The translations under genes and the position numbers were made by a program. The notes below the pieces were generated by a model. That model saw only the letters and a list, made by a program, of their open reading frames with translations, had not been told where the DNA came from and made no database searches. DNA of 64,000 bases from positions 56,718 to 120,717 of the forward strand of contig CAYNLN010000003.1 in the NCBI GenBank assembly GCA_964398065.1, given 5' to 3'. Each line of letters opens with the position of its first letter. The stretch's first letter is position 1. Shown here one piece after another: positions 3,859 to 63,315 of this stretch. The stretch comes from an uncultured Christensenella sp. (lineage in GTDB: Bacteria; Bacillota; Clostridia; Christensenellales; Borkfalkiaceae).

Positions 3859-3886
3859 GAATAACGGGCTTATAGGCGGACTTTTT
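3859..3886 (+). repeat. dispersed 26-nt motif copy (intergenic; its 3' half forms the thiT terminator arm)
   Basis: gaataacgggcttataggcggacttttt. Confidence 0.85.
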
Positions 3887-3910
3887 GTAAAAAAGTCCGC
3901 CCGATTTTTA
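3875..3910 (+). terminator. intrinsic terminator after thiT
   Basis: GGCGGACTTTTT-GT-AAAAAAGTCCGCC hairpin followed by a T-rich tract. The left arm is the 3' half of a dispersed-motif copy. Confidence 0.7.
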
Positions 3911-4058
3911 TTTTAAAAAAGATAAGTCGATAATTAAAAGAATAATTCCAAACCGAAAACAAAAGTTTTTGTGGCGAATTTTACTTTAATTTCGACGTGT
4001 AAAATGACAATTATTGTATCTATTTTGTAAAAATTCCGCCGCATTAAGCGAATATTAC

Positions 4059-4087
4059 TTGACAAAGAACTTAAATCGTAATATTAT
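4059..4087 (+). promoter_or_regulatory. sigma-A type promoter
   Basis: TTGACA (4059-4064), 17-nt spacer, TATTAT (4082-4087). It lies about 170 nt upstream of the ATG at 4263. Confidence 0.55.
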
Positions 4088-4262
4088 TATAGTAACGTTT
4101 TTCACAACATCTTCACCGTTTTTCGGTTTACATTCACAAAAAATACTCTTTTTTAAGAAAAATCGGGCTTTAGCTCGCGTGAAAACATAAGATAAGGGAT
4201 ACATCTGCCGGTATATTCTTAGAGGGCGCTGTATATATTATTAATAATAAGGAGTTTTTGTC

Positions 4263-5297
4263 ATGAACAATACCAATGACAACAATCAAAACTTTGTTGA
4301 TGCAAACAATGATTTACAAAACAATCAACAACCTAACGTAAATCAACAACAGCCTCAACAACCTCAACAACCTTACGGTCAGCAACCCTACGGTTACCAA
4401 GGTCAACAACCGCAACAACCTTACTACGGTCAACAACCTCAACAGCCGTACGGTTATCAACCTCAACAGCCGCAACAACCTTACTACGGTCAACAACCTC
4501 AACAACCCTACGGTTATCAACCTCAACAGCCGCAACAACCTTACTACGCTCCTCAGCCGCAACCCCAAGTTGTAGTTGTTCAGCAACAAGCACCCGTTGC
4601 AGCACCCGCAACCGAAGCCGAAAAGAAGGCTTACTTCGGTCCTGCTTCCTCATTGTTCATGCTTATTTTCTGTATCGTTTCCACGATCAACCTTTTCACC
4701 GGTCTTATCGGTAATATCGTATCTTTAAACATCGGTAACATCTTACTCGTAATATTCGACATACTTATTACTGCCGGTTTATGGGTTACCTTTGCTAAAG
4801 CTAAAAAGCAAAAAGAAGCCGTCGGCGGTCTTAAACTTATCAAGACGCCTTATACCATTAAGTTCGTCTTCTCGATTTTAGGCTTTGTAGGAAACATAGT
4901 AATCTGGTGCATTACTTTAAACGTATTAAGCCTCGTATTCGGTATCATCTCCTTCGTCTTTTCTTGCATTTGCTTTAATTCGATTAAGAAAACCCTTAAC
5001 GTTGCCATCGACATCAACAACAACCTTTCCGTTAAAGGTAAAAAAGCAGGTTCCTTTGCGGCAATCGTTATGATAATCGAAGCAGTTTTGGCTTTAGTAT
5101 CCGATATTATCGGTTACGTAACCTTAGCGGCTATCGTTGAAGGTCTCGAAGGCACTGCTTTTGAACCTATAGCGGCATTACTCGGCGGTGGCGGCACAAT
5201 CACGTTGGTTGTCGCAATAGTTGCTTTCTTAGCTTCTATCTCCGGCGCTATCGTAATCCTCAGCTTCGGCAAAAAGGTTAAACAAGCTAACGCTTAA
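4263..5297 (+). CDS. Membrane protein with an N-terminal Gln/Pro/Tyr-rich low-complexity repeat domain
   Basis: Residues about 1-100 are QQPQQPYGYQPQQPQQPYYGQ repeats. The C-terminal roughly 230 aa contain about 5-6 hydrophobic helices. AAGGAG lies upstream of the ATG. Confidence 0.7.
   Translation: MNNTNDNNQNFVDANNDLQNNQQPNVNQQQPQQPQQPYGQQPYGYQGQQPQQPYYGQQPQQPYGYQPQQPQQPYYGQQPQQPYGYQPQQPQQPYYAPQPQPQVVVVQQQAPVAAPATEAEKKAYFGPASSLFMLIFCIVSTINLFTGLIGNIVSLNIGNILLVIFDILITAGLWVTFAKAKKQKEAVGGLKLIKTPYTIKFVFSILGFVGNIVIWCITLNVLSLVFGIISFVFSCICFNSIKKTLNVAIDINNNLSVKGKKAGSFAAIVMIIEAVLALVSDIIGYVTLAAIVEGLEGTAFEPIAALLGGGGTITLVVAIVAFLASISGAIVILSFGKKVKQANA
4381..4560 (+). repeat. 3 x 60-nt in-frame tandem repeat (about 90% identical)
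   Basis: 4381-4440, 4441-4500 and 4501-4560 align column by column. They encode the Q/P/Y repeat. Confidence 0.9.
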
Positions 5298-5360
5298 TTA
5301 GTTTTAACTACGCTTAGTCGTAATTTATATTAAATATTTTGCGTTTTTAAGCGTTAAAAA

Positions 5361-5400
5361 GCGCTCTGCAAACAAGTTTTGCAGAGCGCTTTGTTTTTTT
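5361..5400 (+). terminator. intrinsic terminator
   Basis: 12-bp stem GCGCTCTGCAAA/TTTGCAGAGCGC followed by a T-run. Confidence 0.8.
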
Positions 5401-5408
5401 AAAATATT

Positions 5409-5436
5409 AAATAACGGGCTTATAGCCTATCTTTTT
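5409..5436 (+). repeat. dispersed motif copy (overlaps the stop codon of the decarboxylase gene)
   Basis: aaataacgggcttatagcctatcttttt. Confidence 0.8.
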
Positions 5437-6749
5437 ACTACTTTAACATTATTTATATCGTAATAGGTAAAAGCCTCGACGGCTTCTTTTGTTATCACCT
5501 CGCCTACGCAAAGCACGGGCACCGCCGGCGGACACGATACCGAAAGTTCCGCCAAAACCCGTCCGCACGCCTCGGTTACGGGGATTTCTTCTTTTAGGGA
5601 AAATACCGCATCGCGAATACTTAAAGCCCTTTCGCCTACCACCCTACGCGGAGGGCTCGTTGTAATCCCGTCTTTTTTAGGCAGAGTCTTCAAAAGTGCG
5701 CACAGTTTATCGATTGACGATTTTTTGTTTAGCGGGGATATCATAAAGGTTACGTAGTCTTTATCGAAAAACTCGGCATAAACGCCGTGTTTTTCTAAAA
5801 ACTCGGCAACCTCCGTGCCTAAATAACCGTAATTTTTCGGCATTAAAGTAATTTTTAAAGGTTCGTCGCCGCAAAGATCGAATCCGACTTTTTTCAACGC
5901 TTCTTTAACTTCGGAAACGTAACAAACGGTTTTTTTTACTTTTTCGGCGTACTTTTCGGCTAAACCGTTAAATTTATCGAGGGATTCTATTAATAAATAC
6001 GACGGACTTGTCGAAGCAAACAATCTTAAAGCATCGTTTGCATTGTCTAAAAAATAGTCGGGACAATTTTTTCCGAAATGAAGATACGCCGTACCCGTAA
6101 GACAAGGCAAGGTCTTATGTGCGGACTCGATGCAAATATCCGCGCCCGCGTCGAGCGGATGACTTTTGTTATCTACGAATTTAAGATAAGCACCGTGTGC
6201 GTTATCGACGACCAAAAGCGTTCCGTATTTGTGGCAAATGTCTGAAATTTGCGAGATAACCGACCTATAGCCCAAGTAATCGGGTGAAGTAATATATAAC
6301 GCAAGCGGCTTTTCGGCTTTTAAAAAAGCGTCCAACGCAACCAAATTAAGATTTGTCGACATCATATTGTCTTCGTCGCCGTAAAGCCAAACGGGGTCAA
6401 CGCCCGAAAGCGCGCAAGCCGAAATAAAGGAGGAATGAACGTTGCGTGCCGCCGCGATTTTTACAGATTGCATGCCTATGCGACGTGTCGATAGCAAATA
6501 CACTACCGCCCTTATTAGAAGCGATGAACCTTCTACAGAGAAAAACGTCGCACTCGATTCGAATATTTTGCTTGCTATTTTTTCGCTTTGCAAAATAATA
6601 CCGCTCGGCGAATACAAAACATCGGCACCGACAATTTCGGTAATATCGTCTTTTTCGACTTTTCCCGCACCCTTGTGCCCGGGCATATGAAACCGCTTAG
6701 ATATTTTGCGGTATTTTTTTATAAAATCGCAAACAGGGGTTTTTGTCAT
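5427..6749 (-). CDS. Orn/Lys/Arg decarboxylase-family PLP-dependent enzyme
   Basis: 440 aa. The N-terminal FHMPGHKG motif and an internal SAHKTLP (PLP-lysine) motif are typical of this family. Confidence 0.75.
   Translation of the reverse strand: MTKTPVCDFIKKYRKISKRFHMPGHKGAGKVEKDDITEIVGADVLYSPSGIILQSEKIASKIFESSATFFSVEGSSLLIRAVVYLLSTRRIGMQSVKIAAARNVHSSFISACALSGVDPVWLYGDEDNMMSTNLNLVALDAFLKAEKPLALYITSPDYLGYRSVISQISDICHKYGTLLVVDNAHGAYLKFVDNKSHPLDAGADICIESAHKTLPCLTGTAYLHFGKNCPDYFLDNANDALRLFASTSPSYLLIESLDKFNGLAEKYAEKVKKTVCYVSEVKEALKKVGFDLCGDEPLKITLMPKNYGYLGTEVAEFLEKHGVYAEFFDKDYVTFMISPLNKKSSIDKLCALLKTLPKKDGITTSPPRRVVGERALSIRDAVFSLKEEIPVTEACGRVLAELSVSCPPAVPVLCVGEVITKEAVEAFTYYDINNVKVVKR
6255..6273 (+). 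repeat. dispersed motif copy (coding; encodes GYRSVI in the decarboxylase)
   Basis: gataaccgacctatagccc. Confidence 0.65.
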
Positions 6750-6794: not shown

Positions 6795-8174
6795 TTAAGA
6801 CTGTTCCTTCGAAACCTCTAACATAATTGCGCATTCGATACGCTTTTTAAAAAGGTCGCAGCCGCTTTTATATACGCCGTTGACAGACCCCGTGGCGTGG
6901 TAAGCGTTCGCCGCACAACCGCCGGCGCAGTATAATTTTGCCCAGCAATTTTCACATTCTTCCCTCGTATAAACGTTACAGTCGGCAAATTCCTTCTGCG
7001 TTTCCCTGCTAGTAACTCCGTCAAAGACGTTGCCCAATTTAAACTTTTCCTCGCCCACGAATTGATGGCAAGGATACAAATCGCCCCAAGGGGTCACCGC
7101 CATGTATTCCGTTCCGCTTCCGCAGCCCGAAACACGCTTGTAAATACAAGGTCCGCCCTTTAAATCTATCATATAGTGATAGAAAGTAAACGGCTTGCCT
7201 TGGCGCCTACGCTCGTCCATAAGCACGGCAAGTTCTTCGTATTGTTTTTTAACGACTTCCCTGTCCTCTTCGGTAAGGGCAGACGGATCGTCTTCTTTAC
7301 AAACGACGGGCTCCATACTGAGCTCTGTAAAGCCAAGATCCAACATCGCCTTAATATCGTTTAGAAAATCGGGATTATGATGGGTAAACGTGCCGCGCAT
7401 ATAATAATTTTTACCGCCGCGCGCCTTGACGAATTTTTGAAACAGCGGAACAATTCTGTCAAAACTACCGTTGCCGTCTTTATCGACCCTGAAACGGTCG
7501 TTAACTTCCTTTCTGCCGTCCAAAGAGAGCACGACGTTACTCATTTCCTTATTGGAAAACTCTATAACGTCATCGTCTATGAGCATACCGTTTGTCGTAA
7601 GCGTAAATCTGAAGTTTTTGTTTTTCTTTTTTTCGATGGAACGCGCGTACGCGACAAGCCTTTTTACGACATCGAAATTCATAAGCGGCTCTCCGCCGAA
7701 AAAATCGACTTCCAAATTGCGCCTCGTTCCCGAATTTTCCACGAGAAAATCGAGGGCGCATTTACCGACCTCGTAACTCATAACGGCGCGGTTGCCGTGA
7801 TATTTTCCTTGACTTGCGAAACAATACGAACAGTTTAAGTTGCAAGTATGGGCAACGTGCAAGCACAGTGCTTTTACGATACCGCTGCTTTTTTGTTTTA
7901 ACTTACCGGCAAGCGGCTTAAATTCATCCTTTGAAAACAACTTACCGTTTTCTTTCAGCGTAGAAATCTCGTCGTATAAAACCGCTAAATCTTCGGCGTT
8001 TTCGTTAGGATATTTTTCTAAAAGTAGGGCTATAAGCCCGTTTTTAGCGGTATTTTCATAACCCGCTATCATATCGTAAGCAATGTCGTCGACAACGTGC
8101 ACCGACCCCGATGAAGAGTCTAAAACTATATCGTATCCGTTTAATTTATATTGATGTACCATTTTTACACGCAA
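6795..8174 (-). CDS. scfB: Radical SAM/SPASM thioether-forming maturase for the SCIFF peptide
   Basis: CNLNCSYC radical-SAM cluster motif and a Cys-rich C-terminal SPASM region (CGSGTEY...CHQF...CENCWAKLYCAGGCAA). It lies immediately downstream of a SCIFF precursor gene. Confidence 0.85.
   Translation of the reverse strand: MRVKMVHQYKLNGYDIVLDSSSGSVHVVDDIAYDMIAGYENTAKNGLIALLLEKYPNENAEDLAVLYDEISTLKENGKLFSKDEFKPLAGKLKQKSSGIVKALCLHVAHTCNLNCSYCFASQGKYHGNRAVMSYEVGKCALDFLVENSGTRRNLEVDFFGGEPLMNFDVVKRLVAYARSIEKKKNKNFRFTLTTNGMLIDDDVIEFSNKEMSNVVLSLDGRKEVNDRFRVDKDGNGSFDRIVPLFQKFVKARGGKNYYMRGTFTHHNPDFLNDIKAMLDLGFTELSMEPVVCKEDDPSALTEEDREVVKKQYEELAVLMDERRRQGKPFTFYHYMIDLKGGPCIYKRVSGCGSGTEYMAVTPWGDLYPCHQFVGEEKFKLGNVFDGVTSRETQKEFADCNVYTREECENCWAKLYCAGGCAANAYHATGSVNGVYKSGCDLFKKRIECAIMLEVSKEQS
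8018..8045 (-). repeat. dispersed motif copy (coding; encodes KNGLIALLL in scfB)
   Basis: ctaaaagtagggctataagcccgttttt (+ strand as written). Confidence 0.75.
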
Positions 8175-8266
8175 AGAAAAAGCCGCCCGAGTGCCGCCCG
8201 TGCCGAAAAATTCGACAAACCGACGGAAAGTAAGGCGACCTATTCTTTTTAATTATTATCCTTTAA

Positions 8267-8419
8267 TTATTTGCTTTCTTTGGAATTCTCGCACTTTTGG
8301 TTAGCAATGCCGCAGCTTGTCTTACAAGCGGATTGGCAAGAAGTTTGGCATTCGCCGCAACCGCCGTTTTTAGCGCTTTCGCAAAGGTTACGCGTTTCGA
8401 TAGTCTTAATGTGTTTCAT
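8267..8419 (-). CDS. scfA: SCIFF (six-cysteines-in-forty-five) ribosomal peptide precursor, 50 aa
   Basis: Hand translation of the minus strand gives MKHIKTIETRNLCESAKNGGCGECQTSCQSACKTSCGIANQKCENSKESK. AAGGAG lies upstream. The gene is not in the ORF track because it is under 60 aa. Confidence 0.9.
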   Translation of the reverse strand: MKHIKTIETRNLCESAKNGGCGECQTSCQSACKTSCGIANQKCENSKESK

Positions 8420-8451
8420 AACTACACTCCTTATATGCTGTTTATATACCG

Positions 8452-8480
8452 ATTATATCACACGACGGAATAAAAATCAA
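8452..8480 (-). promoter_or_regulatory. strong sigma-A type promoter for scfA-scfB
   Basis: Minus sense reads TTGATT (8475-8480), 17-nt spacer, TGA-TATAAT (extended -10, 8452-8460). Confidence 0.6.
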
Positions 8481-8716
8481 CAAAATACGCTTATTCTGCG
8501 CCATTATTAAAGATTTTTCTTTTATTTAACGCCCAAAACCTCGATTTATCGGTAATTTTTTACTTTTATAGCCGACTTTGACTTTTTATAGCGAAGCGTC
8601 GCACCTTTCAAACGTAGGGTTTATTTTGATTGCGAATAATCCCTTGTTTAAAAAACTCTTTAACGAAAGGCTAAGGTATGTAAAAACAAAACGACGACCT
8701 TGCTAACGAGGCAAAA

Positions 8717-10648
8717 CTAACACTTTGACAGTACTAAAACCTCATACGGCGCTACCGTAACTTTTCCGCAAAGTTTTTTGTTTGTAATACGGTCGATATA
8801 GTCATCTTCCAAAACGACGTAACCCTGACAATTTTCCGTTTCAACTACGGTCACGACGCCGTTGTCGCGCTCCGTCAATATAACGTTCAAACTCGCCTCC
8901 GCTATAGGCGCAACGCCTACAAGTTTAAGTAAGTCGTTATGATCAATGACGCTGCCTAATAATACTACCTTCCCCTTGCCTACCTTGCGACTTGCAACGA
9001 CTGTCAACCCGTAAAATTCTTCGCAAGTGTACGTCGCTAAACTTTCGGTGCCGTCCAAGCATTCGTACGCATCGAAATTAACGCCCGTTCTGCACGGTCT
9101 GCCGTCCGACCATTTTGCCGTAAACACGTCGTTATCGACAGGTTTTTGATACTTTGTATAAACGCCCGCAAAATCCTCCAAAAAGCCGTAAGGCGCGTCC
9201 GTGTATTTCGTTACGTTGCTGTCTAAAACGTCCGACATCGGTCCGACAATCCAAGTTCCGCCGCCCTCGACCCATTTTGTAATGCGATTTTTCAAGTCCT
9301 CGCTTATGTACGCTAAAAAGGGCGAAACGACGACGCTGTATTCGGACAAATCGTGCGACACGTCGATTACGTCGACGTTGTGGTGGCGGAACGCATAATA
9401 AAATTTGTTCAAAAGTTCGGTACGATACTTAAATCCCTTAACAAGCGGCGCAACGTTAAAAAGATTCATCGCCTCGGAAGAATAATGTAAGGCAATTTTA
9501 CTTTTAATCTTACCGCCCTCCAAAAGGCCTCGGCAGCAACTTATGTCTTTAGCGGCTTTTCTTACTTCCTCGCTGACGCGATAAGGCCTCCCCACGGCGG
9601 AATACAGCGCGCCGTGCCCTAATTCGTGTCCGTTGGGGTGAGTGCGGAAAAGCCAATACATATTCATTTCGGCGCCTTTTGTTACGGGAAGCCAAGTGTT
9701 TACGTAACAGTTGCCCATCGCTCTGTAACCGCAATCGGCGTATATACTGCCGTTCCATCCCACCTGCGTTTCCGTTACCCAAAAAGGTTTGTCTTTTACC
9801 GCACGGCAAAAGTCGTAGGAAAAAGCCGTCTCGGAAAGTTCTTCCGCGGGCTGGTAATGATTGAATTGCACGACGTCCAAGTTCTCGTTTACCTCGTAAT
9901 AACTTAAATCGTTGTGCTGCATCATATCCGTACCGACGTTTTTACAGCCGAAACTATGCAAAACCTCGGCTTGTTCGTCAACATAAGTTTTTATTTGACG
10001 ACATTGGAAATCCCACCACGCCTTTCTTAGCGACGGATGCTTCCATTGTTTAGGGTATACGGGCATTACGGCGTCGAAATCGTCGTATTTAAGCGACCAG
10101 CGCACCATTCCCCAAGCATTGTTTAGATTTTCAATGCTTCCGTATTTATCCTTCAGCCAAAGTCTGAAAGCCCTTTTGCAGTTTTCGCAATAGCAACCGC
10201 CGTCATAAGGGAAAATTTCATTGTCGATTTGCCACCCGATTACGCCTTTATGCGTTGCAAACGCCTCGGCAAGTTTCGTAACGATAATTCTGTTTTTCTC
10301 TCTTGCGATTTTAGACGTTTTGCAAACGTGACAACGCGAAGCAACGTCGGTTCTTGTTAAGTCGGACATAACAAGACGCATTTCGGTATATTTATCGAGC
10401 ATCCACCTCGGCGGAGTCGCCGTCGGCGTACACATAATCGTGTAAATGCCGTTTTCGTATAATTTGTCCACGACTTTTTTGAGCCATTCGAGGTTAAAAT
10501 TTCCCTCGGACGGTTCCATTTCGCCCCAAGCAAATTCCCCGACACGTAAAACGTTTATACCGAGGTCTTTGCACCTTTGTATGTCTTTCTCTACCTCTTT
10601 ATCGTCCCACATTTCGGGATAGTAAGCCGCGCCTAAATAAATGCTCAT
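8717..10648 (-). CDS. GH42-family beta-galactosidase
   Basis: N-terminus GAAYYPEMW...INVLRVGEFAWGEMEPSEGNFNLEWL, and the Cys cluster GGCYCENCKRAF typical of GH42. 643 aa. Confidence 0.8.
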   Translation of the reverse strand: MSIYLGAAYYPEMWDDKEVEKDIQRCKDLGINVLRVGEFAWGEMEPSEGNFNLEWLKKVVDKLYENGIYTIMCTPTATPPRWMLDKYTEMRLVMSDLTRTDVASRCHVCKTSKIAREKNRIIVTKLAEAFATHKGVIGWQIDNEIFPYDGGCYCENCKRAFRLWLKDKYGSIENLNNAWGMVRWSLKYDDFDAVMPVYPKQWKHPSLRKAWWDFQCRQIKTYVDEQAEVLHSFGCKNVGTDMMQHNDLSYYEVNENLDVVQFNHYQPAEELSETAFSYDFCRAVKDKPFWVTETQVGWNGSIYADCGYRAMGNCYVNTWLPVTKGAEMNMYWLFRTHPNGHELGHGALYSAVGRPYRVSEEVRKAAKDISCCRGLLEGGKIKSKIALHYSSEAMNLFNVAPLVKGFKYRTELLNKFYYAFRHHNVDVIDVSHDLSEYSVVVSPFLAYISEDLKNRITKWVEGGGTWIVGPMSDVLDSNVTKYTDAPYGFLEDFAGVYTKYQKPVDNDVFTAKWSDGRPCRTGVNFDAYECLDGTESLATYTCEEFYGLTVVASRKVGKGKVVLLGSVIDHNDLLKLVGVAPIAEASLNVILTERDNGVVTVVETENCQGYVVLEDDYIDRITNKKLCGKVTVAPYEVLVLSKC

Positions 10649-11014
10649 AATTTTTCCTCCGATAAAACAGTTTAAAAAAGTAAAATATGTTTGTCGTATG
10701 ATATTTTAACATTTTATCGGCGTTTCGCCAAGCATTTGGAAAGCCGCGTAATCAAAAAAACAGATATCATTGATTTTTTCAATCCCTTTCATATTGTTAA
10801 AAATAAGTTTATTACAAAAAAATTCAAAAGGCATCGGGCGAATTCTTGACTATACGCGCGATTTGTCGCCAAGTTATGAATATTTCTATAAGGTCAAGTT
10901 TATTAGTAGCTCTAACACGGCAATGCAATCTAAATCGTTTTTCATACCATGTCTGGCAATTATTTCAGATAAAGAAGTCGAAAGTTTATTCAACAATCTT
11001 TTTTTACATTGAAA

Positions 11015-11047
11015 GACTGTCGCTTAACGCGACAGTCCCATTTTTTA
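11015..11047. terminator. 9-bp GC-rich hairpin, probably the terminator downstream of the giant surface-protein gene
   Basis: GACTGTCGC-TTAAC-GCGACAGTC. The T-run is better on the + strand than on the - strand. Confidence 0.4.
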
Positions 11048-11139
11048 TATTCAATTTTTCCGCCAATGGTAGCAACAAATGCACATATAAACATTACGTC
11101 GATTCAATCGTGTCGGTATATTTTTTACGAATGCCGTTG

Positions 11140-14100
11140 TTACTTAATCCCTTTTTTTCGAAGAAAAAACATCAGCAAAGGCACAATCGCACCACACGAC
11201 AAGCCGAACAAAACTATCGACACAATCATCCAAGCGGTAACAGAGCTTAGTTTGTCGTTAAGCTCCTCGATATTCTCCGTCGCACCGCTCAAATCGCCGT
11301 TTAGCGAGTCAATCTTGCTTTGAGCATCGGCAACCTCGGTTTGGGTTTTGCCAAGTTCCGATTTTGTGTCGCTTAGTTCCGATTTTGTGTCATCCAGCTC
11401 GGTTTGGGTTTTGCCAAGTTCCGATTTTGTGTCGCTTAGTTCCGACTTTGTGTTATCAAGCTCGGCATTTGTTTCGTCCAGCTCGGTCTTAGTGTTATCA
11501 AGCTCGGTTTGCGTTTTATCCAGTTTGTCAGTCAAATCATCGGCAACCTCTGCCGTAACGTACCATTGAGCGCGCAACACCAAGTCCGCGACGACTTGCT
11601 TATCAAAGTCGTATGCAACGTCCCCGTTGAGCCAAACGTACATATAGCCGTCGTACGCCGGCAGCGAAACGGCTATTGCTTTTTGTCCACGCTCGACAAC
11701 AAGCTTTGTTACCGTTTGGTCGCCGTTTAGGTACGTTACGGTGAAAGAGTTTGAAGTATCCGCGCCCTCCACGTCGGAAAGATAAAATCCGCCCTTGATT
11801 GCAGAGTTATCGCAATAAACGTTTCGATTAAAAGTTGTAGAACTAACGCTTCCTTCCGGCATAACCACGGCGGATTCTTTCAAGTGCACGGTGCCGTCCA
11901 CGATTCCGCCCGATGCGTTAAGCGTGCTTTCCTTTAGATACAATGCGTCGGATTTGCCGTTGCTTTCCGTGCCGCTCGACGTGCAGTTTGTAATGCCGCC
12001 GTCCTTGATATCGATATCGCTTTCCGAATGGATACCGCCGCCTTCCGTTGCGTTGCAATTTTCAACGGAACCGCCTTCGAGCGATAGATACGACAGAGCC
12101 GATACATATATGCCGCCGCCGTACGTCGCGCGGCAATCATATACTGTGCCGCCGGCAAATATAAGCCCGCCTTTTTCTATCAAGACACCTCCGCCAAGGG
12201 AGCCGTCGTCTGCACTAAGCACACATCCCGTGCCGCCACTTATGAGCCCGCCGAGTGGCAAGTCGGTGTTCGAATGCACCGCGCCGGGATCGCTGTCGGT
12301 GATGGTAAGATATGCGTCATTGACGATTCTGATAACGCTACCCGAAGCTTCCGAATTTTGATAGCTTAAGATGTGACCGGCGAGATCCAAGGTGATATTA
12401 TTATTAACAATGACAGTTGCGCTCGGAGATATATCGTCAAGAAGCTTAAACTCTGTCATTCCGTTCCGCAGTGCATCCAGAAGCTCTTGCTCCGTCTTTA
12501 CATAACCGCTCCTCACGGTGAGCGTCACGGGCTCCGTAACAACGGACTCGAACACGTCCCCTATGGCGTTGGTGACCGTGCATCTGAACATTGCGCCGTT
12601 CATGCCGTGGGTCGTTGTATTGCACAGCAGGGAATAATCTGTTTCGCCCGCTTCGCACTGAATAGGAGCGACTGCGCTTTCCCAAGTCACGCCTCCGTCG
12701 TTGCTTATCTCCCAAAGCACCGTGTAGTTTGTTGTCGGATTATCTATCTGCAATATAAACTTAACGGCACTTCCGAGCCAGACGGTCTGGTCGACAGGTT
12801 CAGCCGTGATTATGGGCGCAAGCACCAATACCGGCGCAACCTCGTTTGTGTAAACAGTAACGCTAATATCGTCGTTCAACTTGTAGCCCACAAAGCATCT
12901 GTATTTTTCGTAGGAAGGCAGCGAAGCCCCGAACATATACATTGCTTGCTTATCCGTATCGAAATAGTTTTCGCTCGCAAGTTCCACCCAACCGAGAACG
13001 GAATCGTATCCCTGCCATTGATACGTCACGCTCACATTGCTTGAATACTCGTGCTTTGCGGACATGATAAACTTGCCCGTACTTGTCGCCGCCAAGCCTT
13101 GCGAATCGTCTATCGACAGATCGGAAATAACCCCCACGCTCACAACGTCCGAGTACGAGCACACGGTAAGGTCGTTTTTCGATATGCTAACCTTGCAGCG
13201 GTATAAGCCGCCGTCTGCCACGGTCAAGTTCTGCAAGTCAAAGGTGAACACCGTGTTTAAGTACGACTGCGTAAACACATCGCCCACGCTTTGCCAAGTA
13301 TCGCCGCCGTCCGTGCTTATTTCAAATTGATAGGTCTTGTAATAGTGGAAAAATACGCCGTTGTCGTCTACTTTCCAAGACGCGCCGTCGCCCTCGGTAT
13401 ATATGCCGTCCGCCATATTACTTATAACCACACCGCCGTCATCGAATGCGGGCGGAAACAAGATGTACACATAGGCGTAGTCGCTGTATCTTGTGTAATT
13501 CACGTTCTTGTACTTAAACTTGACCTGCAACCTGTATCTCGAAACAGAGCCGATCCCCGATACGTTTTCGTAATACAGCGTAGTCGCGGTGATTTTGTTT
13601 TCGGTATTGACTTTATCATAGTTGCCGTTCGACCAAGTTTCGTATATCCACTCATAGGTCACGTCGGATATGCCGTTGCCGTCCCCGTCCGTGTAATCCT
13701 CATCGAAAGCAGCCGTTAACGACAAGGAATCGGACGACGTTAAAGTGACGGTGCTCTCCGGTTGAACGATAAATCCCGCAAAATCGAGAACCGTAAACGT
13801 TGCCTCGTTCGAATATACCGTGTAGTCGCCGGATCGCATAACGCAACGTAGCTTCCAGCCGTTCATTTCTGTAGTAAAAGTAACTTCTACTCCCAAGCTG
13901 CCATACCAGCTATCCGTTACTTCGGAGTTTCCGTACGGGCTCAAATACTTAGTTGAAAAAATAATACTAAGCCCGGATTTAAAAGCCGGATTGTCCAAGG
14001 CGCGTTGCCAGGTCTCTCCGTCATCGGTGCTATATTCGTACCAGCAATCGACAACGCCCATATAACAGTTTTTTAAGTTGATTGAAAAATATTTGGTCAC

Positions 14101-16983: not shown

Positions 16984-17062
16984 ATGATTACCTCCTCAAA
17001 GTAACTAAGCCTGTTTTATTTTGTAACAGCTCACCGCCGTTTACAATTCCGATGGGGTGCTT

Positions 17063-17103
17063 GTGTAGTATATTAATACTACACAAAAGGGATATCCCTT
17101 TTG
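17063..17103. promoter_or_regulatory. Two adjacent palindromes between the TetR gene and the giant surface-protein gene (candidate operator and/or terminator)
   Basis: GTGTAGTA-TATTAA-TACTACAC (17063-17084) and the perfect 20-bp palindrome CAAAAGGGATATCCCTTTTG (17084-17103). Confidence 0.4.
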
Positions 17104-17134
17104 TGCGTTTTTGAATTCTTGCGTTTGTTTTATT

Positions 17135-17716: not shown

Positions 17717-17989
17717 CTGTTACAACCTCCTGACTTATCAATCAATAAGATTACATCATAGGCTGCTGCATTCTGCAACCGTTTTTATCTAAAAAAGTCA
17801 AATTTGTTTTGCAAATATTCTATTAATTACGAGACGCTTTTGCGTAAACATAAGGTGCTTTGCATTTTTACGCTGTTAAATTTAGAAAAATAGAGGCAAA
17901 CGAATGAAGTAATACTTGCCGTATTACAAACGAGTTTAACAAAGATTTTGCAAATTAAACAGTGCTAAAACTTAATCGATTTGGCTCGC

Positions 17990-18640: not shown

Positions 18641-18708
18641 AACCCCCGTGGGCGTGAACCCAAACGGTTTTCAAGACCGCCTCGTTGTGACCGCTTCGAT
18701 ATGCCTCC
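18620..18708 (-). tRNA. tRNA-Ser (anticodon UGA), CCA encoded
   Basis: Minus sense reads GGAGGCA-TA-TCG..CGA-G-GCGGT-CTTGAAA-ACCGT-long variable arm-GGGGGTTCGAATCCCTC-TGCCTCC-G-CCA. The cloverleaf was folded by hand. Confidence 0.9.
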
Positions 18709-18903
18709 GTAATATTGAGTTGTAACTTATAAAAAAGCGCTTATTGTAAATAAAGCGCAACTTAATTACCGCTTTTTTGATTACCGAAACATTATATAAT
18801 AATTTTTTTGAAAAATCAAGGATTTGATACACATTTTTTTAATTTGTGTAACTTTGGTTGCAAAATCGAAGTTCATATGGTAAAATGTAAAATCATATCA
18901 TAG

Positions 18904-48865: not shown

Positions 48866-51800
48866 CTAATTTCGATTTGCAAGGGAATTTTTTACGAATT
48901 CGACCGCCAACGACAAGTTGATTTCGGCATTTCGAGCCCCGGCGGACAGCGTTACGACAGGGTTTTCGGTAAACGATAATGCCGAGTTTTTCTTGAATTT
49001 AGCGAGAGAGGCATTAAGCCCGCCGTCCGAAAAAGCGTTAAGGTCTTTAAAAATCAGCGTGGCGCACTCTTGCGTAACAGTAACTTTAACGACCTCTAAC
49101 TTCCTTGCAAGATACTTAAGTTCGGATACGGAAATAAGATTGCACACTTGTTTCGGCATTTTTCCGTAAACTTCGGTAAGTTCGTTTTCAACCCGCTTTT
49201 TGTCGTCGTCCGACGTTATTTCGGCTATTTGCTTGTATACGTCCATCCTCGACGAGGCAACGGACACGTAATCGTTTGGGATATATGCGTCGAGACGAAT
49301 ATCAAGTTCGGTTTCGTAATCTTTGGTGACTTCGCCGAGTTGTTCTCGCAAAAGTTTAGAGTAAAGTTCGTACCCGATTTTATCCATATGCCCGTGCTGT
49401 TCTTTGCCTAAAACGTTACCCGCACCGCGTATTTCGAGGTCCCGCATGGCGATTTTATAACCGCTGCCGAGTTCGTTGTGTTCGACAAGGGCGGAAAGCC
49501 TTTTATACGCCGCCTCGCCTATTGCTTTATCGGGCTTAAAAGTAAAATAAGCGTGCGCCATTTTGTCGCTTCTACCGACCCTTCCCTTTAGTTGGTAAAG
49601 GGTAAAAAGTCCGAATCTGTCCGCGTCTATTACTATAAGGGTGTTAGCGTTAGGCAAATCGATGCCGTTTTCTATTATTGTAGTGCACAAAAGAACGTCG
49701 TATTCCCCGTTATAGAACGCCATAATGTTGTTTTCGAGCGTTCTTTTATCCATCTGACCGTGGCAAACAACTATCTTTGCTTCGGGTAAAAGTGAGGCTA
49801 TATGCCCGTTAAACGCATTTATCGTTTCAACGCGGTTGTATAAAATAAAGGTTTGACCTCCGCGGGATAATTCCTTTAAAACGGCGTCGCGTATGGTTGC
49901 GTCGCTTTCTTCCAAAACGTAAGTTTGTACGGGTATACGCTTCATCGGCGGAGTGTTAATCAAACTCATTCCGCGTATTCCCGACAGCGACATATGAAGC
50001 GTCCTCGGGATTGGCGTTGCGGTCATTGTAAGCGTGTCGACGCTGCTTTTAAGCGAACGAAGTTTTTCTTTTGCCTCGACGCCGAAGCATTGTTCTTCGT
50101 CTAAAATAAGCAAACCTAAATCATAAAAGGACACGTCCTTTCCCAAAAGGCGGTGGGTACCTATTATCAGATTGTAACTTCCGTCCGCTATGCCTTTAAG
50201 GTATTCTTTTAGTCTTTTAGAGGAAACGAATCTGTTTAATACGGCTATTTTTACGCCGAAACCTTTAAACCTTTCCGTCGCCGTGCGGTAATGCTGTTCG
50301 CTTAAAATGGTGGTAGGCGTCATAATAGCCACTTGCTTTCCGTCGAGTATGGCTTTGAAGGCAGCCCTGAAGGCAACTTCGGTTTTACCGAATCCCACGT
50401 CGCCCATCAAAAGCCTGTCCATTATCCTATCGCTTTCCATATCCTTTTTGATTTCCGCGACGGATTGCGCTTGATCCTCGGTAAGGGCAAATTCGAAAGC
50501 GTCGTCGAATTCCGCAGTCATTTCGTTGTCGGGCGAAAACTTAAAACCTTTCTTTTCAGCCCTTTCGCGATAAAGTTGTTTAAGGTTTATCGTCATACGG
50601 GAAATGGATTCCCTTGCATGACGTTTTATTCTGTCGAATTCCGCCCCGCCTATTTTATTAAGGTGCGGGGATTTTTCGCCCCCTAAATACTTGGTAAGTT
50701 TATCTAATTGCTCTACGGGAACATATAAAAAGTCCCCGCCGGCGTATTCGAGCGCCACGTAATCTTTAGTTCCGTCCGAAGTCGAAATTCTTTCAGTCCC
50801 GCGCACGATACCGATGCCGTGCGTTTCGTGTACGGCAAAGTCGCCCGGTTCGGGTGCGGTAAAGGTGTCTTTTCTTCGACGTATAACTTTTTTATCCTTA
50901 ACGCCGCTTAAAAAGACGTCGCACGTACCTATAACCGCGAGTTTTTCGTCGTGTAAGACAAAACCCGTGTTTATAAACGAAGGTAAAATATATACGCCCG
51001 CAGTAGCGCTCGGGCTGTCGGTGATGACCGCTAAGATCCCTTGAGAATACAAATTGTCTTTAAGTCTGTTTGCTCTTTCGCTGCTTCCTGCGGCGATAAT
51101 CGACCTATAGCCGCGTTTTTGCCAATTGCCAAGGTCAACGGGAAGATCCTCCGGCTTAGAAACGTATCTCGGAACCGCCGTTACGTTTAGTCTAAATGTA
51201 AGGTTGGGTTTAAAAAAATCCGTAGACGCCGCTATACTTTGAAACGCTATGCCCTTTTTCGATTTTAAAAGCCCGTAAAATTCATTGCTGTCGGTAATTT
51301 GGCGCGAGGTAAACGATAAAGCCTCGCCCGCGTCGTAAAGACCCGAACATCTTTCGAAATGTTCTCTATATATTCCGTTTATCGAATCGGCAATCATTTT
51401 CGGCTCGACAAACACGCAAGTTATATCGCCCGATATAAGTTTAAAAAAGTCCGAGGTCGTATTTTTAAAGAGCGGATACAAAAACGATAAGGAGTAGTCG
51501 GAATAGTTTCCGCTTTCCAAAACCTCTTTAAGTTCGCCTACAATCTGCCTTGCTTTTGTGGTCTGTCTAAGTGTTTTTAACTTTTTAAAAGATGCGGAAA
51601 GTCGGTCTATAAGCCCGTTAACCTCGTCTTTTTCAATTAAAAAATCAACGGCGGGCAAGATTTCGAAACTTCTTACCTCATCTAAGCCCACGTGTTTAAC
51701 CGTATCGAGAATTCTTATTTTTTCAATCTCGTCGCCGAAAAAGTCGCACCTAAAAGCCTCTTGCGAGTTTACGGGAAAAACCTCGAAAATGTCCCCTCTT

Positions 51801-54914: not shown

Positions 54915-54941
54915 AAAAGTCCACCTATAAGCCGATTATTA
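54914..54941 (-). repeat. dispersed motif copy (fills the whole 24-nt spacer between the CPBP stop and the rlmH ATG; supplies AGGTGGA as the SD)
   Basis: taaaagtccacctataagccgattatta. Confidence 0.85.
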
Positions 54942-59327: not shown

Positions 59328-59948
59328 TTATTTATCTTTTTTATTTTGCCAAGCCTCGTAAGAAAAAACGCATCCGCAATAGTTTTGGCGGTAAAGCCCA
59401 TACTCTTTTGATAACTCGATAGACCTTACGTAACCTTGCTTTTTCTTAAAGTCCGACGGTAAAAAAGGAACGCCGATTTCTTCGGCAATTCGGCTGCCTA
59501 TTTCGTTTAACTTTTCGGCGTTTTTATACGGGCTTACGGATAAAGTAGTGCAATAACAGTCATATAGACCGACTTTTGCCGCTTTTGCCGTTTCATACAA
59601 TCTGTCTTCGTAGCAGTAAAAACAACGCTTTCCGCCCTCGGGCAAGTCTTCTAAGCCTTTAGAGTTTAAAAAGAATTTTTGCGGGTTAAACTCGCCCTCT
59701 GCTATGTTTACTTTATCGCCGTAAACGGTTTTTGTAAATCTATAAAGTTCGCTTAATCTTTTATTGTATTCTTCCCTTTCGGTAATGTTGGGATTATAGA
59801 AAAACAAAGTAACGTCAAAATACGGCGTTACCCTCTCCAAAACGCTCGAGGAGCACGGCGCGCAACAAGCGTGAAGTAAAAGTTTTTGTTTTTTTTCTAA
59901 TTTGTTTACGTATTCGGTAAACGCTTTGTCATAATTGATTTTTTCCAT
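59328..59948 (-). CDS. queH: Epoxyqueuosine reductase QueH
   Basis: LLLHACCAPCSS and C-terminal NYCGC motifs. 206 aa. Confidence 0.8.
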   Translation of the reverse strand: MEKINYDKAFTEYVNKLEKKQKLLLHACCAPCSSSVLERVTPYFDVTLFFYNPNITEREEYNKRLSELYRFTKTVYGDKVNIAEGEFNPQKFFLNSKGLEDLPEGGKRCFYCYEDRLYETAKAAKVGLYDCYCTTLSVSPYKNAEKLNEIGSRIAEEIGVPFLPSDFKKKQGYVRSIELSKEYGLYRQNYCGCVFSYEAWQNKKDK

Positions 59949-59956
59949 TTTTACTT

Positions 59957-59984
59957 AAAAAGTGCCTCTATAGGTCGATTATCG
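59957..59984 (-). repeat. dispersed motif copy (intergenic; overlaps the stop codon of the 212-aa gene, upstream of queH)
   Basis: aaaaagtgcctctataggtcgattatcg. Confidence 0.85.
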
Positions 59985-61548: not shown

Positions 61549-61580
61549 GCCGCCCGCTTTTAAAAGCAGGCGGCTTTTTT
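61549..61580 (+). terminator. intrinsic terminator after ttcA
   Basis: GCCGCCCGCTTTT/AAAAGCAGGCGGC hairpin plus T6. Confidence 0.75.
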
Positions 61581-61603
61581 CTTAGCATTACTTTAAAAAA
61601 GTA

Positions 61604-61630
61604 CGATAACGGGCATATAGGCAGACTTTT
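61604..61630 (+). repeat. dispersed motif copy (intergenic, ttcA / mreB-like)
   Basis: cgataacgggcatataggcagactttt. Confidence 0.8.
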
Positions 61631-61635
61631 AAGCA

Positions 61636-61680
61636 AAAACGGACTTAGCGTTTTACTAAAGTCCGTCTTTGTTTTTCTAT
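61636..61680 (-). terminator. intrinsic terminator after the mreB-like gene
   Basis: ACGGACTT...AAGTCCGT hairpin followed by a T-run in minus sense. Confidence 0.6.
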
Positions 61681-61700
61681 AAAAACTTGCGTTTTTTAAA

Positions 61701-62708
61701 TTAAGTTTTATTGATTCTTAACTTTTTCAAAAGTTGTTTGTTTTCGGCTAAATAACCGCCGCCTAAAATAACCGCGGCTTGAGCGTCCTTATATATATTT
61801 GCACGTATGCCCATCTTTTCACGGAAGTATTCCTCGAGCCCGGGCATTTGCGAAACGCCGCCGGAAAAATAAATACCGCTTTTTCTTACGTCAGAAGAAA
61901 CCTCTGCGGGAAGCTTGGATAAAACCATACCCGTAATTTGGAATATTTTGTCGAAAAACATTTGAATCGGTTCTTTTAAATCCTCGGCGGAAATTCTTAT
62001 CGAATGGGGTCTGCCCGTTTCGACTGACTGACCGCTTACGACCATAGTCGTCATATCGCCCTCGATAAGGGAGCAAATTTTTTGTTTTACGACCTCGGCT
62101 GTTAAAGAACCTATCCTTATAGCGTAATTTTCTCGTATATGGTTAATAATCATGGCATCGATACTCATGCCGCCCATATTTACGGTTATGCCGCAAATAA
62201 TTCCGTCGAGCGATACCGCCGCGATTTGCGTCGAGCCTCCGCCGATGTCGACGATAAACGCGGGTGACGCGTCTGTCATAGGAAGCCCTAATCCCAACGC
62301 CGTAAGCACGGGGGCTTCCACGAACACGTAGTCTGTTACGCCCGAATTACGCAAAACCCTTTCCGCCGTTTTTATATCGCTTGCGCTTACTCCGCAAGGA
62401 ACGGAAAACACGACTGACGGTCTTGACGAAAAACGTTTTACCGTGATTTTGTTTAAAAACCTGTTAAGCATGAGCGAGCACGCTTTTTCGTCCGTTATGC
62501 GCGATTCGAAAACCGGCGCAACGATAACCGTACTGCCGGTTGTTCTTCCGACGAGTTTTTTGGCGTCGAAACCGACCTCCTTAACGGTAGGGTTCGAGTC
62601 TGTCGAAAACGCAACAAGACTCGGTTCGAACAAAACGACGCTTGCGCCGACTTGATAAATACCGGTGTTTGAAGAGCCTATATCGACGGCTATCATATTG
62701 CTACTCAT
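61701..62708 (-). CDS. MreB/Mbl-family actin-like protein (divergent)
   Basis: IAVDIGSSNT and VDIGGGST phosphate motifs. 335 aa. It is adjacent to maf, as in maf-mreB clusters. Confidence 0.7.
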   Translation of the reverse strand: MSSNMIAVDIGSSNTGIYQVGASVVLFEPSLVAFSTDSNPTVKEVGFDAKKLVGRTTGSTVIVAPVFESRITDEKACSLMLNRFLNKITVKRFSSRPSVVFSVPCGVSASDIKTAERVLRNSGVTDYVFVEAPVLTALGLGLPMTDASPAFIVDIGGGSTQIAAVSLDGIICGITVNMGGMSIDAMIINHIRENYAIRIGSLTAEVVKQKICSLIEGDMTTMVVSGQSVETGRPHSIRISAEDLKEPIQMFFDKIFQITGMVLSKLPAEVSSDVRKSGIYFSGGVSQMPGLEEYFREKMGIRANIYKDAQAAVILGGGYLAENKQLLKKLRINKT

Positions 62709-63265
62709 ATTAACTCCTTAAGTAATTCGTTTATTTTTTCCATCGGTAGTCCGATGACGTTTGTAAAACTGCCTATATATTCCTTAACGAAGGGATAACC
62801 GTTTTGAATACCGTATCCGCCCGCCTTGTCAAGCCCTAACCCTTTGTCGACGTAATCGTTTATAAGTTCGTCGGATAAATCGTTGAAAACCACCTCGGTT
62901 TTAATATAGCCCGACGTTTCATAGCCGTTATCTATGACGGCATAGCCCGTATAAACATAATGACTCCGCCCTGACAACTTTTTTAAAAAAGCGACGTTTT
63001 CGGGCTTATCCGCGGGCTTTTCTAAAATTTTACCGTCTAAAACGACTATAGTGTCGGCAGCAAGACAAAGGACTTTTTCGCGTTTGAAAACGTCGTTTGC
63101 CTTAGCCTTTGCAAGATGCTCGACGTAAACCCACGGCTGCAAATTTTTATCTTCACACTCGGGACATTCCGCGGGCACAACCCTAAACTTATAACCTTCT
63201 TGTAAAAGAAGTTCTTTTCTCCTCGGCGAAGCGCTCGCCAATACGAATTCTTTCATAAACAACAA
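62705..63265 (-). CDS. maf: Maf-family nucleoside-triphosphate pyrophosphatase
   Basis: LASASPRRKELL and GAYGIQ-like (GGYGIQ) motifs. Confidence 0.85.
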   Translation of the reverse strand: MLFMKEFVLASASPRRKELLLQEGYKFRVVPAECPECEDKNLQPWVYVEHLAKAKANDVFKREKVLCLAADTIVVLDGKILEKPADKPENVAFLKKLSGRSHYVYTGYAVIDNGYETSGYIKTEVVFNDLSDELINDYVDKGLGLDKAGGYGIQNGYPFVKEYIGSFTNVIGLPMEKINELLKELI

Positions 63266-63288
63266 TGTCCAAGTTGATATTTTTTGTG

Positions 63289-63315
63289 CGATAATCGACC
63301 TATAGGCGGACTTTT
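63289..63315 (+). repeat. dispersed motif copy (intergenic, maf / ROK)
   Basis: cgataatcgacctataggcggactttt. Confidence 0.85.

Follow-up and report, generated by a model that had tools for sequence, protein, structure and literature searches.

A long asymmetric DNA motif with helically phased flanks, written by point substitution into genes and spacers of a clade of gut Clostridia

The DNA analysed here, a stretch of 64,000 nucleotides from an uncultured Christensenella sp. (assembly GCA_964398065.1, contig CAYNLN010000003.1, positions 56,718 to 120,717 of the forward strand), is referred to below as the window and is ordinary housekeeping chromosome of a spore former. Its genes include spoIVA, cotH, glpK, murG, mfd, pth, prs, tadA, rlmH, plsY, der, queH, mreB and maf, and no transposase was found among them. 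Scattered through this DNA, in genes and in spacers, is a motif of about 27 nucleotides that an earlier sequence-only reading had picked out by eye and compared with DNA uptake sequences. Here, we describe a computational analysis of this motif in the window and in related genomes. We show that its copies were made in place by point substitutions that altered proteins, and that they accumulated along one clade. What emerges is a genuine DNA signal, built by substitution and shared across the lineage, whose mechanical signature was unexpected.

A position weight matrix (PWM) of 27 nucleotides finds 28 sites above 16 bits in the window, against a mean of 0.025 in 40 second-order Markov simulations, so that the density lies far above that of composition-matched controls. 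PWM scores are bimodal, with a single window site between 8 and 16 bits, and a profile built from the first matches recovers 27 copies at E<0.01. The motif is equally evident from simple matching: a degenerate 26-mer with up to three mismatches gives 13 matches in the window and none in 100 dinucleotide shuffles. The recurrence of identical 15-mers, which the sequence-only reading had held to be beyond chance, is confirmed by CTATAGGTCGATTAT, found five times exactly and three times with one mismatch where none is expected. The two sequence variants it described, CGGGCT and T/CCGACC, are both present, together with intermediates. Both strands are used, as it had stated, with about 15 copies on the plus strand, about 12 on the minus strand and one within a palindrome at 36333-36382 that is perfect except for one unpaired position per arm and has its dyad between the two halves of TATA. 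About half of the copies do lie in open reading frames (ORFs), with 13-14 coding, 3 across a gene end and 11 intergenic. Additional weak copies had been claimed near 985, 8565, 37185 and 62770. These were not recovered, as no PWM score exceeds 8 bits there and only an 11-nt fragment (37182-37192) and a degenerate copy (62995-63021) lie nearby. One copy, at 1904-1930, falls just outside the range of that reading. The 28 sites are as follows:

1904-1930, plus strand: copy, 23.3 bits, in the spoIVA ORF (999-2447, minus strand), antisense; encodes LKSINKPFI
3859-3885, plus strand: copy, 41.3 bits, intergenic, just past ORF 2672-3844; its GGCGGACTTTTT end is the left arm of hairpin 3875-3901
5409-5435, plus strand: copy, 26.6 bits, across that end of the decarboxylase ORF 5427-6749 (minus strand) which carries the stop codon
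6254-6280, plus strand: copy, 18.0 bits, in the decarboxylase ORF, antisense; encodes DYLGYRSVI
8020-8046, minus strand: copy, 32.0 bits, in the radical-SAM ORF 6795-8174, sense; encodes KNGLIALLL
18974-19000, minus strand: copy, 43.2 bits, near the start of the YfhO ORF called from GTG 18904, within its first 32 codons
19935-19961, plus strand: copy, 27.5 bits, in yfhO, sense; encodes VNRPIDRFL; kept in the related locus L084
21621-21647, plus strand: copy, 30.2 bits, in yfhO, sense; encodes VFGLIGALL
21857-21883, plus strand: copy, 37.1 bits, in the convergent yfhO/cotH spacer, within hairpin 21835-21887 (z -5.0)
24123-24149, minus strand: copy, 32.2 bits, intergenic, downstream of the sigma-factor ORF 24158-24931
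24951-24977, minus strand: copy, 41.8 bits, intergenic, in the 94-nt direct repeat 24943-25036
28957-28983, minus strand: copy, 41.8 bits, intergenic, in the second 94-nt direct repeat 28949-29042
30927-30953, plus strand: copy, 40.6 bits, intergenic, just past ORF 30358-30912
36344-36370, both strands: palindromic copy, 27.7 bits, matching both strands at the centre of the near-perfect palindrome 36333-36382
38388-38414, minus strand: copy, 38.0 bits, in the SecB-like/hydrolase spacer; L189 has it too
40482-40508, plus strand: copy, 23.0 bits, in glpK, antisense; encodes QKPLYRSII
41508-41534, plus strand: copy, 35.0 bits, in murG, sense; no gap in alignment
45116-45142, minus strand: copy, 34.1 bits, intergenic, in an accessory-looking island at 42.6-46.3 kb
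49788-49814, minus strand: copy, 27.5 bits, mfd site 3, sense; encodes FNGHIASLL; no gap in alignment
51094-51120, plus strand: copy, 32.2 bits, mfd site 2, antisense; encodes QKRGYRSII
51597-51623, minus strand: copy, 35.4 bits, mfd site 1, sense; encodes VNGLIDRLS
54915-54941, minus strand: copy, 34.0 bits, filling the 24-nt Rce1-like/rlmH spacer and covering the stop codon; spacer also occupied in L189
58323-58349, minus strand: copy, 35.1 bits, in the DUF512 gene, sense; encodes QKTAYRRTF
59551-59577, plus strand: copy, 27.1 bits, in queH, antisense
59958-59984, minus strand: copy, 33.4 bits, in the small-exporter/queH spacer, covering the stop codon
61604-61630, plus strand: copy, 39.1 bits, intergenic, past the PP-loop (ttcA-like) ORF
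62995-63021, plus strand: degenerate copy, 20.5 bits, in the maf ORF, antisense
63289-63315, plus strand: copy, 40.8 bits, intergenic, in the maf/ORF 63326-63970 spacer; matches the consensus given in the sequence-only reading perfectly

The copy at 54915-54941 occupies its whole spacer, as had been noted. Its AGGTGGA stands 5 nt upstream of the rlmH ATG, and the copy may double as the rlmH ribosome-binding site. The copy at 18974-19000 may lie upstream of the true yfhO start, the Pfam match of that ORF beginning at residue 64.

Related DNA was scanned with an exact 19-mer of the motif, using one genome per species, and more than 107 loci were listed. Their source assemblies, at least about 23, bear the labels Christensenellaceae, Christensenella or uncultured Clostridia and derive from the guts of human, goat, deer and buffalo; species counts from these genome and metagenome scans are lower bounds. 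Together with the window, the 19-mer loci comprise a pooled set of 893 kb with 380 non-redundant copies, in which genes were taken as simple ORFs of at least 100 amino acids. Good copies are over-represented in loci picked by an exact 19-mer, and key results were rechecked in the window alone and in non-ascertained copies. Relatives were ranked by the identity of their Mfd to that of the window.

The consensus of the 380 copies is AAAAA-n5-CGATAACGGGCTTATAGGCGGACTTTT, and it does not change across more than 20 species, whose GC contents range over 36-49%. The core spans 27-36 bp and consists of the asymmetric 27-bp sequence CGATAACGGGCTTATAGGCGGACTTTT with an A5 tract 5-6 bp upstream. GC and AT blocks alternate in it every 10 bp, with the AT blocks centred at 5.5, 15.5, 25.5 and 36.5; only this AT/GC pattern and GGCYTATAGSC are dyad-like, the sequence itself being asymmetric. 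Positions 3-39 carry 36-40 bits of information, likewise for the window alone and for copies lacking the 19-mer, and about 12 bits are enough to specify approximately 1000 sites in a genome of about 2.5 Mb, a comparison of site information with the information needed to find sites that is Schneider's approach. The left block alternates between CGGGCT and TCGACC, with intermediates, and the right block among GCGGAC, CCCCAC and CCCGAC. Mutual information across the 380 copies is purely local, joining positions 18-19-21-23 and 29-31-32, and no covariation was found between the two motif halves. Folding of the 42-nt core shows no excess over shuffles (mean z -0.42; consensus -2.4 kcal/mol), and among the Rfam covariance models run on the window only tRNA-Ser reached its gathering score, the motif being unmatched. 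The absence of cross-half covariation, of excess core folding and of an Rfam family shows that the motif is a feature of double-stranded DNA rather than an RNA or a hairpin. No sequence conservation extends beyond the core, so that there are no element ends. By eye, the consensus sequences of IHF, Fis, cre, the DnaA box, the Spo0A box and gyrase cleavage are partial matches at best; the gyrase cleavage consensus agrees at about 10 of 13 specified positions around G19-C22. These resemblances are leads and not tests.

The 380 copies comprise 220 that are intergenic (58%), 27 that overlap a gene end (7%) and 133 that lie wholly within ORFs (35%), in pooled sequence that is 84% coding. They are densest in convergent spacers (2.66 per kb), followed by tandem spacers (1.89), divergent spacers (0.60) and coding DNA (0.18). 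Intergenic copies lie closer to the upstream stop codon (median 30-59 nt) than to the next start (146-173 nt). Overall there are 0.42 sites per kb, or approximately one every 2.4 kb, and the core accounts for about 1.5% of the DNA. Orientation is without evident rule: 184 copies are on the plus strand and 196 on the minus strand, the two orientations of copies are split 69:64 relative to the host gene and 72:66 relative to the upstream gene, there is no bias relative to the dominant gene strand (p = 0.14), and no replication polarity was detected against local GC skew (odds ratio 1.4, p = 0.22). Coding copies are essentially limited to a single frame in each orientation (62 of 69 and 52 of 64) because the other frames contain TAA or TAG, a restriction that the sequence-only reading had recognized. 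They also avoid the 500 bp around other copies, with 14% in this range versus 31% in the null. For about one-third of the intergenic copies, the surrounding 120-nt window folds with z < -2, and a near-perfect inverted partner (at most one mismatch) lies downstream in 6 of 247 non-coding copies. Re-use in terminators, proposed earlier, proves to be real in that the two hairpins named then fold well (z -2.7 and -5.0), but it concerns a minority, as only about 21% of intergenic copies have a GC block in a significantly stable hairpin. The stable hairpins around this minority are ordinary 3'-end structures.

The motif is restricted to one lineage, a clade of more than 20 species-level metagenome-assembled genomes (MAGs) labelled Christensenellaceae or Clostridia. 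Its density follows relatedness to the window, falling from 0.54 per kb at 84% Mfd identity through 0.47 at 71%, 0.30 at 57%, 0.26 at 56% and 0.18 at 54% to 0.17 at 53%, and spanning 0.17-0.56 per kb over more than 20 species. At Mfd identities of 51% or below the density is 0 in all loci tested, about 1 Mb of DNA, and L112 and L118, which are the closest relatives without the motif, contain no 11-mer repeated to a comparable extent that might serve as a replacement word. Within the clade, the motif is kept at the same place in 64 of 104 cross-species comparisons (66-84% nucleotide identity). Identity in 39 unique pairs is 88.8% for the core and 70.8% for the 60 nt to either side, and the core has the higher value in 38 of 39. 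For coding copies only, the values are 90.6% and 69.5%; therefore, synonymous positions of the core are constrained. Sites also turn over. At one orthologous site, in L086 and L024, the variants CGGGCT and TCGACA have been swapped, and the Rce1-like/rlmH spacer is occupied in several species, in L190 (6861-6887) in the orientation opposite to that of the window, which indicates independent gain or turnover at one spot. A collection of viral sequences yielded a single contig of 56% GC with a 21-nt partial match; given that composition and length, the match is probably chance, and carriage by phage was rejected.

Several motif-bearing assemblies carry unexpected labels. Loci L004, L006, L032, L035, L044 and others (CAVJMJ), L011, L012 and L075 (CAYVKZ), L033 and L081 (CAYZWD) and L015 (CAVJNC) come from assemblies labelled Parasutterella excrementihominis, Acidiphilium sp. 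or Subdoligranulum sp., yet have clade-typical motif density and a GC content of 40-48%. Probably the taxonomic labels, or the bins themselves, are wrong, and the motif serves as a precise clade marker that is already revealing mislabelled MAGs. Two unrelated Clostridia-type loci have repeated words of their own: L138 (17 kb) contains GTAGGGGCGGAT-type words seven to eight times, REP-like and with a GTAG head, and L139 (23 kb) contains AATTGACAATTG ten times.

The origin of the copies is best read where they lie in genes. Alignments were examined at the seven coding sites in glpK, mfd, murG, DUF512 and queH, and the copies lie in ungapped stretches. Codon alignments with up to 15 orthologues have no gaps near the site at any of the seven, save for one position in one motif-less outgroup, L195, at mfd site 1, and motif-less orthologues are of equal length at all seven. 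The GlpK segment QKPLYRSII aligns without a gap to GKPIYNAIV of the Escherichia coli enzyme, among the most conserved parts of that protein. Those Mfd copies that fall inside the PDB alignment lie in ungapped stretches, and codon alignments extend this to all three. At the nucleotide level, 14 of 40 alignments with a motif-less partner are ungapped; gaps in those rechecked, at mfd 49788-49814, prove by protein alignment to be alignment noise.

Gains of the motif are nested along the Mfd tree. The oldest site found, mfd site 2, is present in every lineage with an Mfd identity of at least 55%, mfd site 3 at identities of at least 71%, and mfd site 1 only at identities of at least 77%; the murG site is confined to the window and its closest relatives, L189 (84%) and L022, and the queH site to the window and L189. 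The earliest Mfd site arose where outgroups already had a motif-like sequence, GGnTATAAr, encoding G-Y-K. Individual sites improve stepwise along the phylogeny: the glpK site climbs from 8.4 through 17.2 to 25.8 bits, and the DUF512 site from 13-15 through 27-30 to 35 bits. Because these gains in coding sites are gap-free, nested and stepwise, origins of the type of miniature inverted-repeat transposable elements (MITEs), of repetitive extragenic palindromic (REP) sequences with their REP-associated tyrosine transposases (RAYTs), and of Rickettsia palindromic elements are excluded.

The core is accompanied by a second, more extended signal. Alignment of the sequences on the motif reveals an oscillation in AT content that keeps in phase with it for approximately 100 bp to either side; the period is about 10 bp within the core, lengthening to about 11.4 bp in the flanks. 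The AT peaks lie at model positions -62, -51, -40, -29, -17 and -4.5 to the left and at 5.5, 15.5, 25.5, 36.5, 45.5, 57, 68, 81, 91 and 102 through the core and to the right. The oscillation has an amplitude of 0.50-0.70 in the flanks of coding copies, where the periodogram (129 copies) has a power of 0.12-0.155 at 11.5-11.75 bp, against a maximum of 0.021 over 300 random sets of 129 coding anchors. Control anchors away from the motif (AAAAA, TTTT, TTATAG and W5) give a power of 0.0001-0.0027 in coding DNA, and together with the random sets they rule out generic genome periodicity as the cause. The phasing is present in all seven species taken separately and in 92% of copies, and fades by about 100-140 bp. 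Motif-less orthologues do not have it (correlation -0.04 versus 0.15; about 12 independent sites), which speaks against an older phasing that attracted the motif, and orthologues that keep the motif keep it (0.11 versus 0.12). These results show that GC and AT blocks alternate on one face of the helix and that the minor grooves of the flanks narrow in phase. Because the phasing runs approximately 100 bp to either side of the core, the unit is a piece of DNA of about 200-240 bp with a specific central core, and at 0.42 sites per kb such units shape roughly a tenth of the genome.

No motif of this kind is described for Gram-positive bacteria in the searchable literature. The motif string occurs in no paper there, and neither repeats nor competence in Christensenella are treated in any paper found. 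The closest parallels are of two sorts. The uptake signal sequence (USS) and DNA uptake sequence (DUS) are likewise present on both strands, in hundreds to thousands of copies, enter genes without gaps in stop-free frames, favour 3' ends, are lineage-specific and stable in position, occupy about 1-2% of the genome and carry surplus information; the USS also has helically phased AT tracts beside its core. The present motif differs from them in its core of 27-36 rather than 9-12 bp, in phasing over about 100 bp on both sides, in its lack of dialects and in its occurrence in Gram-positive Clostridia; moreover, about half of USS and DUS copies lie in terminators, often as inverted pairs, a trait that the 6 of 247 and about 21% reported above do not match. 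DNA gyrase provides the other parallel. Its mapped motif has a 36-bp centre with periodic flanks and is enriched downstream of transcription units (PMC6379681), and the gyrase motif has also been treated in Streptococcus pneumoniae (PMC12630141). This motif and the strong gyrase sites, such as the Mu strong gyrase site and the REPs of class 2 bacterial interspersed mosaic elements (BIMEs), resemble ours in the centre of about 36 bp, the periodic AT/GC flanks and the enrichment 3' of transcription units. The gyrase motif, however, is degenerate, dyad-symmetric and 130 bp long with a period of 10-10.75 bp, whereas the present motif is clade-restricted, has a highly conserved asymmetric core and is phased over about 240 bp, with a flank period of about 11.4 bp.

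Other dispersed words are more distant. REPs, which recruit gyrase, are also hard-wired repeats, but they are extragenic hairpins spread by transposition, and none of the traits of REPs, BIMEs, REPINs and MITEs, namely confinement to extragenic DNA (133 of 380 copies are in ORFs), a hairpin, and presence or absence by insertion and deletion, is found here. Chi, the FtsK-orienting polar sequences (KOPS) and the SpoIIIE recognition sequences (SRS) are protein-read words that were put into genes by substitution and kept genome-wide; they are 8-mers with a strong replication strand skew, which our motif lacks. Rickettsia palindromic elements and in-gene MITEs are also translated in unrelated proteins, but theirs add residues where the present motif replaces them. 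The highly iterated palindrome HIP1 (GCGATCGC) of cyanobacteria, the closest precedent for an unexplained word in coding DNA, is an over-represented word made by substitution in coding and non-coding DNA, but is an 8-bp perfect palindrome and not a long asymmetric sequence; its function is still unsettled, and we know of no report of extended phasing around it. Thus, the motif resembles DNA uptake-enhancing sequences (DUES) in the way it populates the genome and gyrase or architectural sites in its physical anatomy, and it cannot be filed as a member of either group.

We infer that its function lies between two readings that fit almost equally well, one architectural and the other concerned with uptake. 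The alternative that the motif is the site of a nucleoid or architectural protein had been raised in the sequence-only reading, and the phasing favours it at least as strongly as the USS/DUS analogy. We tentatively prefer it: a clade-specific protein may dock on the core, bend or wrap the flanks, and so serve chromosome architecture or supercoiling. Such a protein or complex would read successive major grooves of the core from one face of the helix and bend the DNA sharply on docking; the phased flanks would then wrap around it or interwind beside it. A right-handed path, such as that of a gyrase-type wrap or of a plectoneme arm, fits a flank period above 10.5 bp; LrpC of Bacillus subtilis is another right-handed DNA wrapper. 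The sites would be hard-wired anchoring or loading points, about one every 2.4 kb, for architecture or the management of supercoils, preferably at gene 3' ends and in convergent spacers, where positive supercoils collect and sequence is least constrained, and would be placed in tolerant codons where no spacer is at hand. We count in favour of this reading the phasing and its co-evolution with the core, the ranking of convergent over tandem over divergent spacers, the short-range spacing, the lack of dialects and of covariation between the halves, the higher conservation of the core than of its flanks, a consensus that is uniform between species, and the likeness to the gyrase motif. It is conceivable, and we put it forward with reserve, that each genome contains approximately 1000 such hard-wired wrapping sites, each a 36-bp core in about 200-240 bp of phased DNA with a clade-specific reader, which together shape about 10% of the sequence, were written by substitution despite their cost to proteins and constitute an undescribed kind of element.

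Several observations weigh against an architectural role. Conserved protein segments have been overwritten, as where FAERVKNIL of outgroup Mfd became FNGHIASLL, a change of seven of nine residues, and the increase in density along the lineage, from 0.17 per kb up to 0.54, is gradual; both fit a drive well. Selection on binding only does not usually leave 36-40 bits where about 12 are needed, such a surplus being typical of molecular drive or copying. The sampled partial genomes revealed no candidate for the binding protein, and gyrase itself cannot explain a clade-restricted, asymmetric and conserved core because it is universal and reads DNA indirectly. The ranking of spacers is explained equally well by tolerance, because promoters occupy divergent spacers, and spacing is only weakly regular (coefficient of variation 0.81-0.88).

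Much of this evidence would be expected of a DNA uptake sequence analogous to the USS and DUS, in which a competence receptor binds the core, and preferred uptake followed by recombination drives mutations towards the consensus; we regard this reading as a serious possibility, although not as a likely one. It accounts for a gap-free substitutional origin even in conserved proteins, for the stepwise improvement of the glpK and DUF512 sites, for a density that grows along the lineage and, through molecular drive, for information about three times what the number of sites needs. Use of both strands without polarity, stop-free frames only, a preference for gene 3' ends with about 21% in stable hairpins, positions that are stable between species and restriction to a lineage are also as expected. 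DUES make up as much as about 2% of DNA, with AT tracts that aid bending (10.1101/2025.10.24.684340, PMC7811141), and our core share is near that figure, with frames, permissive regions and AT tracts in agreement. In the uptake reading the phased flanks might, with the same degree of reserve, help to fold the DNA loop that is pulled through a thick cell wall. On the other side, uptake specificity is known only from Pasteurellaceae and Neisseriaceae, where a kink is needed for the outer-membrane secretin, and the hosts here are Gram-positive spore formers. The core, at 27-36 bp, is longer than the 9-12 bp of the known sequences, phasing over about 100 bp on each side that co-evolves with the core in coding DNA goes far beyond the two AT tracts of the USS, and no dialects have arisen over deep divergence. 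The USS/DUS analogy of the sequence-only reading stands for substitutional origin, strands, frames, 3' ends, lineage and stable positions, but fails on the habit of inverted pairs, which are rare here (6 of 247). A crude regular-expression screen of about 0.95 Mb of clade DNA gave no signature of pilin, ComGA or ComEC, and is uninformative because the sample covers small parts of each genome; its sole HxHxDH match was rejected as a generic N-terminal metallo-beta-lactamase domain.

The same excess information and directional stepwise gain could come from another sequence-directed drive or self mark, written by a clade-specific nicking or repair enzyme that turns near-cognate sites into cognate ones in the style of very-short-patch repair, or serving as a word by which a recombination or defence system tells own from foreign DNA. 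We consider this unlikely. The swaps between CGGGCT and TCGACC at orthologous sites would need three to four concerted changes, which speaks for such a drive; concerted changes are not required, however, because variant intermediates exist and single steps are enough. Such a drive or mark would also suit the accessory-looking stretches that are free of the motif (8.05-18.97 kb, 31-36.3 kb and most of the island at 42.6-46.3 kb) and the single doubtful match in the viral collection. Nevertheless, recognition of a 27-bp word at approximately 1000 sites is not known for any repair or defence system, the phasing is not explained by such a drive itself, and no associated gene was seen. An element acting in RNA, as an intrinsic terminator, an mRNA stabiliser, a small RNA or a piece of riboswitch, is very improbable. 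The intergenic copies near 3' ends, the one-third of 120-nt windows with z < -2 and the roughly 21% with a GC block in a stem point that way, but equal orientations, the lack of covariation, a consensus of -2.4 kcal/mol and the lack of an Rfam family do not, and coding copies and a helical phasing of double-stranded DNA have no explanation in RNA. A miniature mobile element, whether a MITE, a REP or REPIN moved by a RAYT or Y1 enzyme, or a Rickettsia-type palindromic element inserted in frame, is scarcely credible. High copy number, enrichment in 3' spacers, the near-perfect palindromic copy and the pair of copies in a direct repeat around a 4-kb segment would suit it; against it stand the ungapped protein alignments at seven coding sites with motif-less orthologues of equal length, the 35% of copies within ORFs, the lack of hairpin covariation and of element ends, and a window devoid of transposase genes. 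The proposal that the motif is the target or footprint of a Y1/RAYT transposase is rejected on the same grounds: no insertions or deletions, no hairpin constraint and 35% inside genes.

If it proves to be an uptake sequence, the motif would be without precedent both among Gram-positive bacteria and in an abundant gut lineage associated with health; it would imply sequence-biased gene exchange among Christensenellales and provide a handle for transforming them. If it is architectural or topological, a bacterium can hard-wire approximately 1000 wrapping sites with phased flanks into coding DNA, which would add a layer of constraint on protein evolution and offer a natural system for studying DNA mechanics in chromosome organisation. 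The nested gains are a rare, datable record of a long DNA signal built by point mutation, and the sharp limit of the motif at about 52% Mfd identity should allow phylogenetic profiling to reveal the protein that recognises it.

Several regions of the window merit separate description. The 94-nt direct repeats at 24943-25036 and 28949-29042, which are 99% identical and contain the motif, flank a 4-kb segment with two unknown ORFs and a BspA-type leucine-rich-repeat gene, and the segment looks like a cassette gained or duplicated by recombination at motif-bearing sequence. Within the leucine-rich-repeat gene (26531-28753) there are two perfect 300-nt tandem repeats and a third partial one (94% identity) at 27333-28075, and a 55-nt terminator-like hairpin sequence is repeated in perfect tandem at 28847-28956, adjoining the second 94-nt repeat. 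Between a helix-turn-helix gene and a gene of 701 amino acids, five ORFs without a Pfam match and a single motif copy occupy 42632-46349; these ORFs are missing from the syntenic L189 (84% Mfd identity) and L190 (71%), and the region looks like an accessory island. The 11 kb at 8050-18970 are motif-free, contain a GH42 beta-galactosidase and an ORF of 1947 amino acids without a Pfam match (11140-16983), and have a GC content of 0.49 versus about 0.42; they may be more recently acquired DNA. Finally, 31523-33724, in the motif-free stretch at 31-36.3 kb, encodes a protein of 733 amino acids with a TIR domain and TPR repeats that looks like the product of a defence gene.

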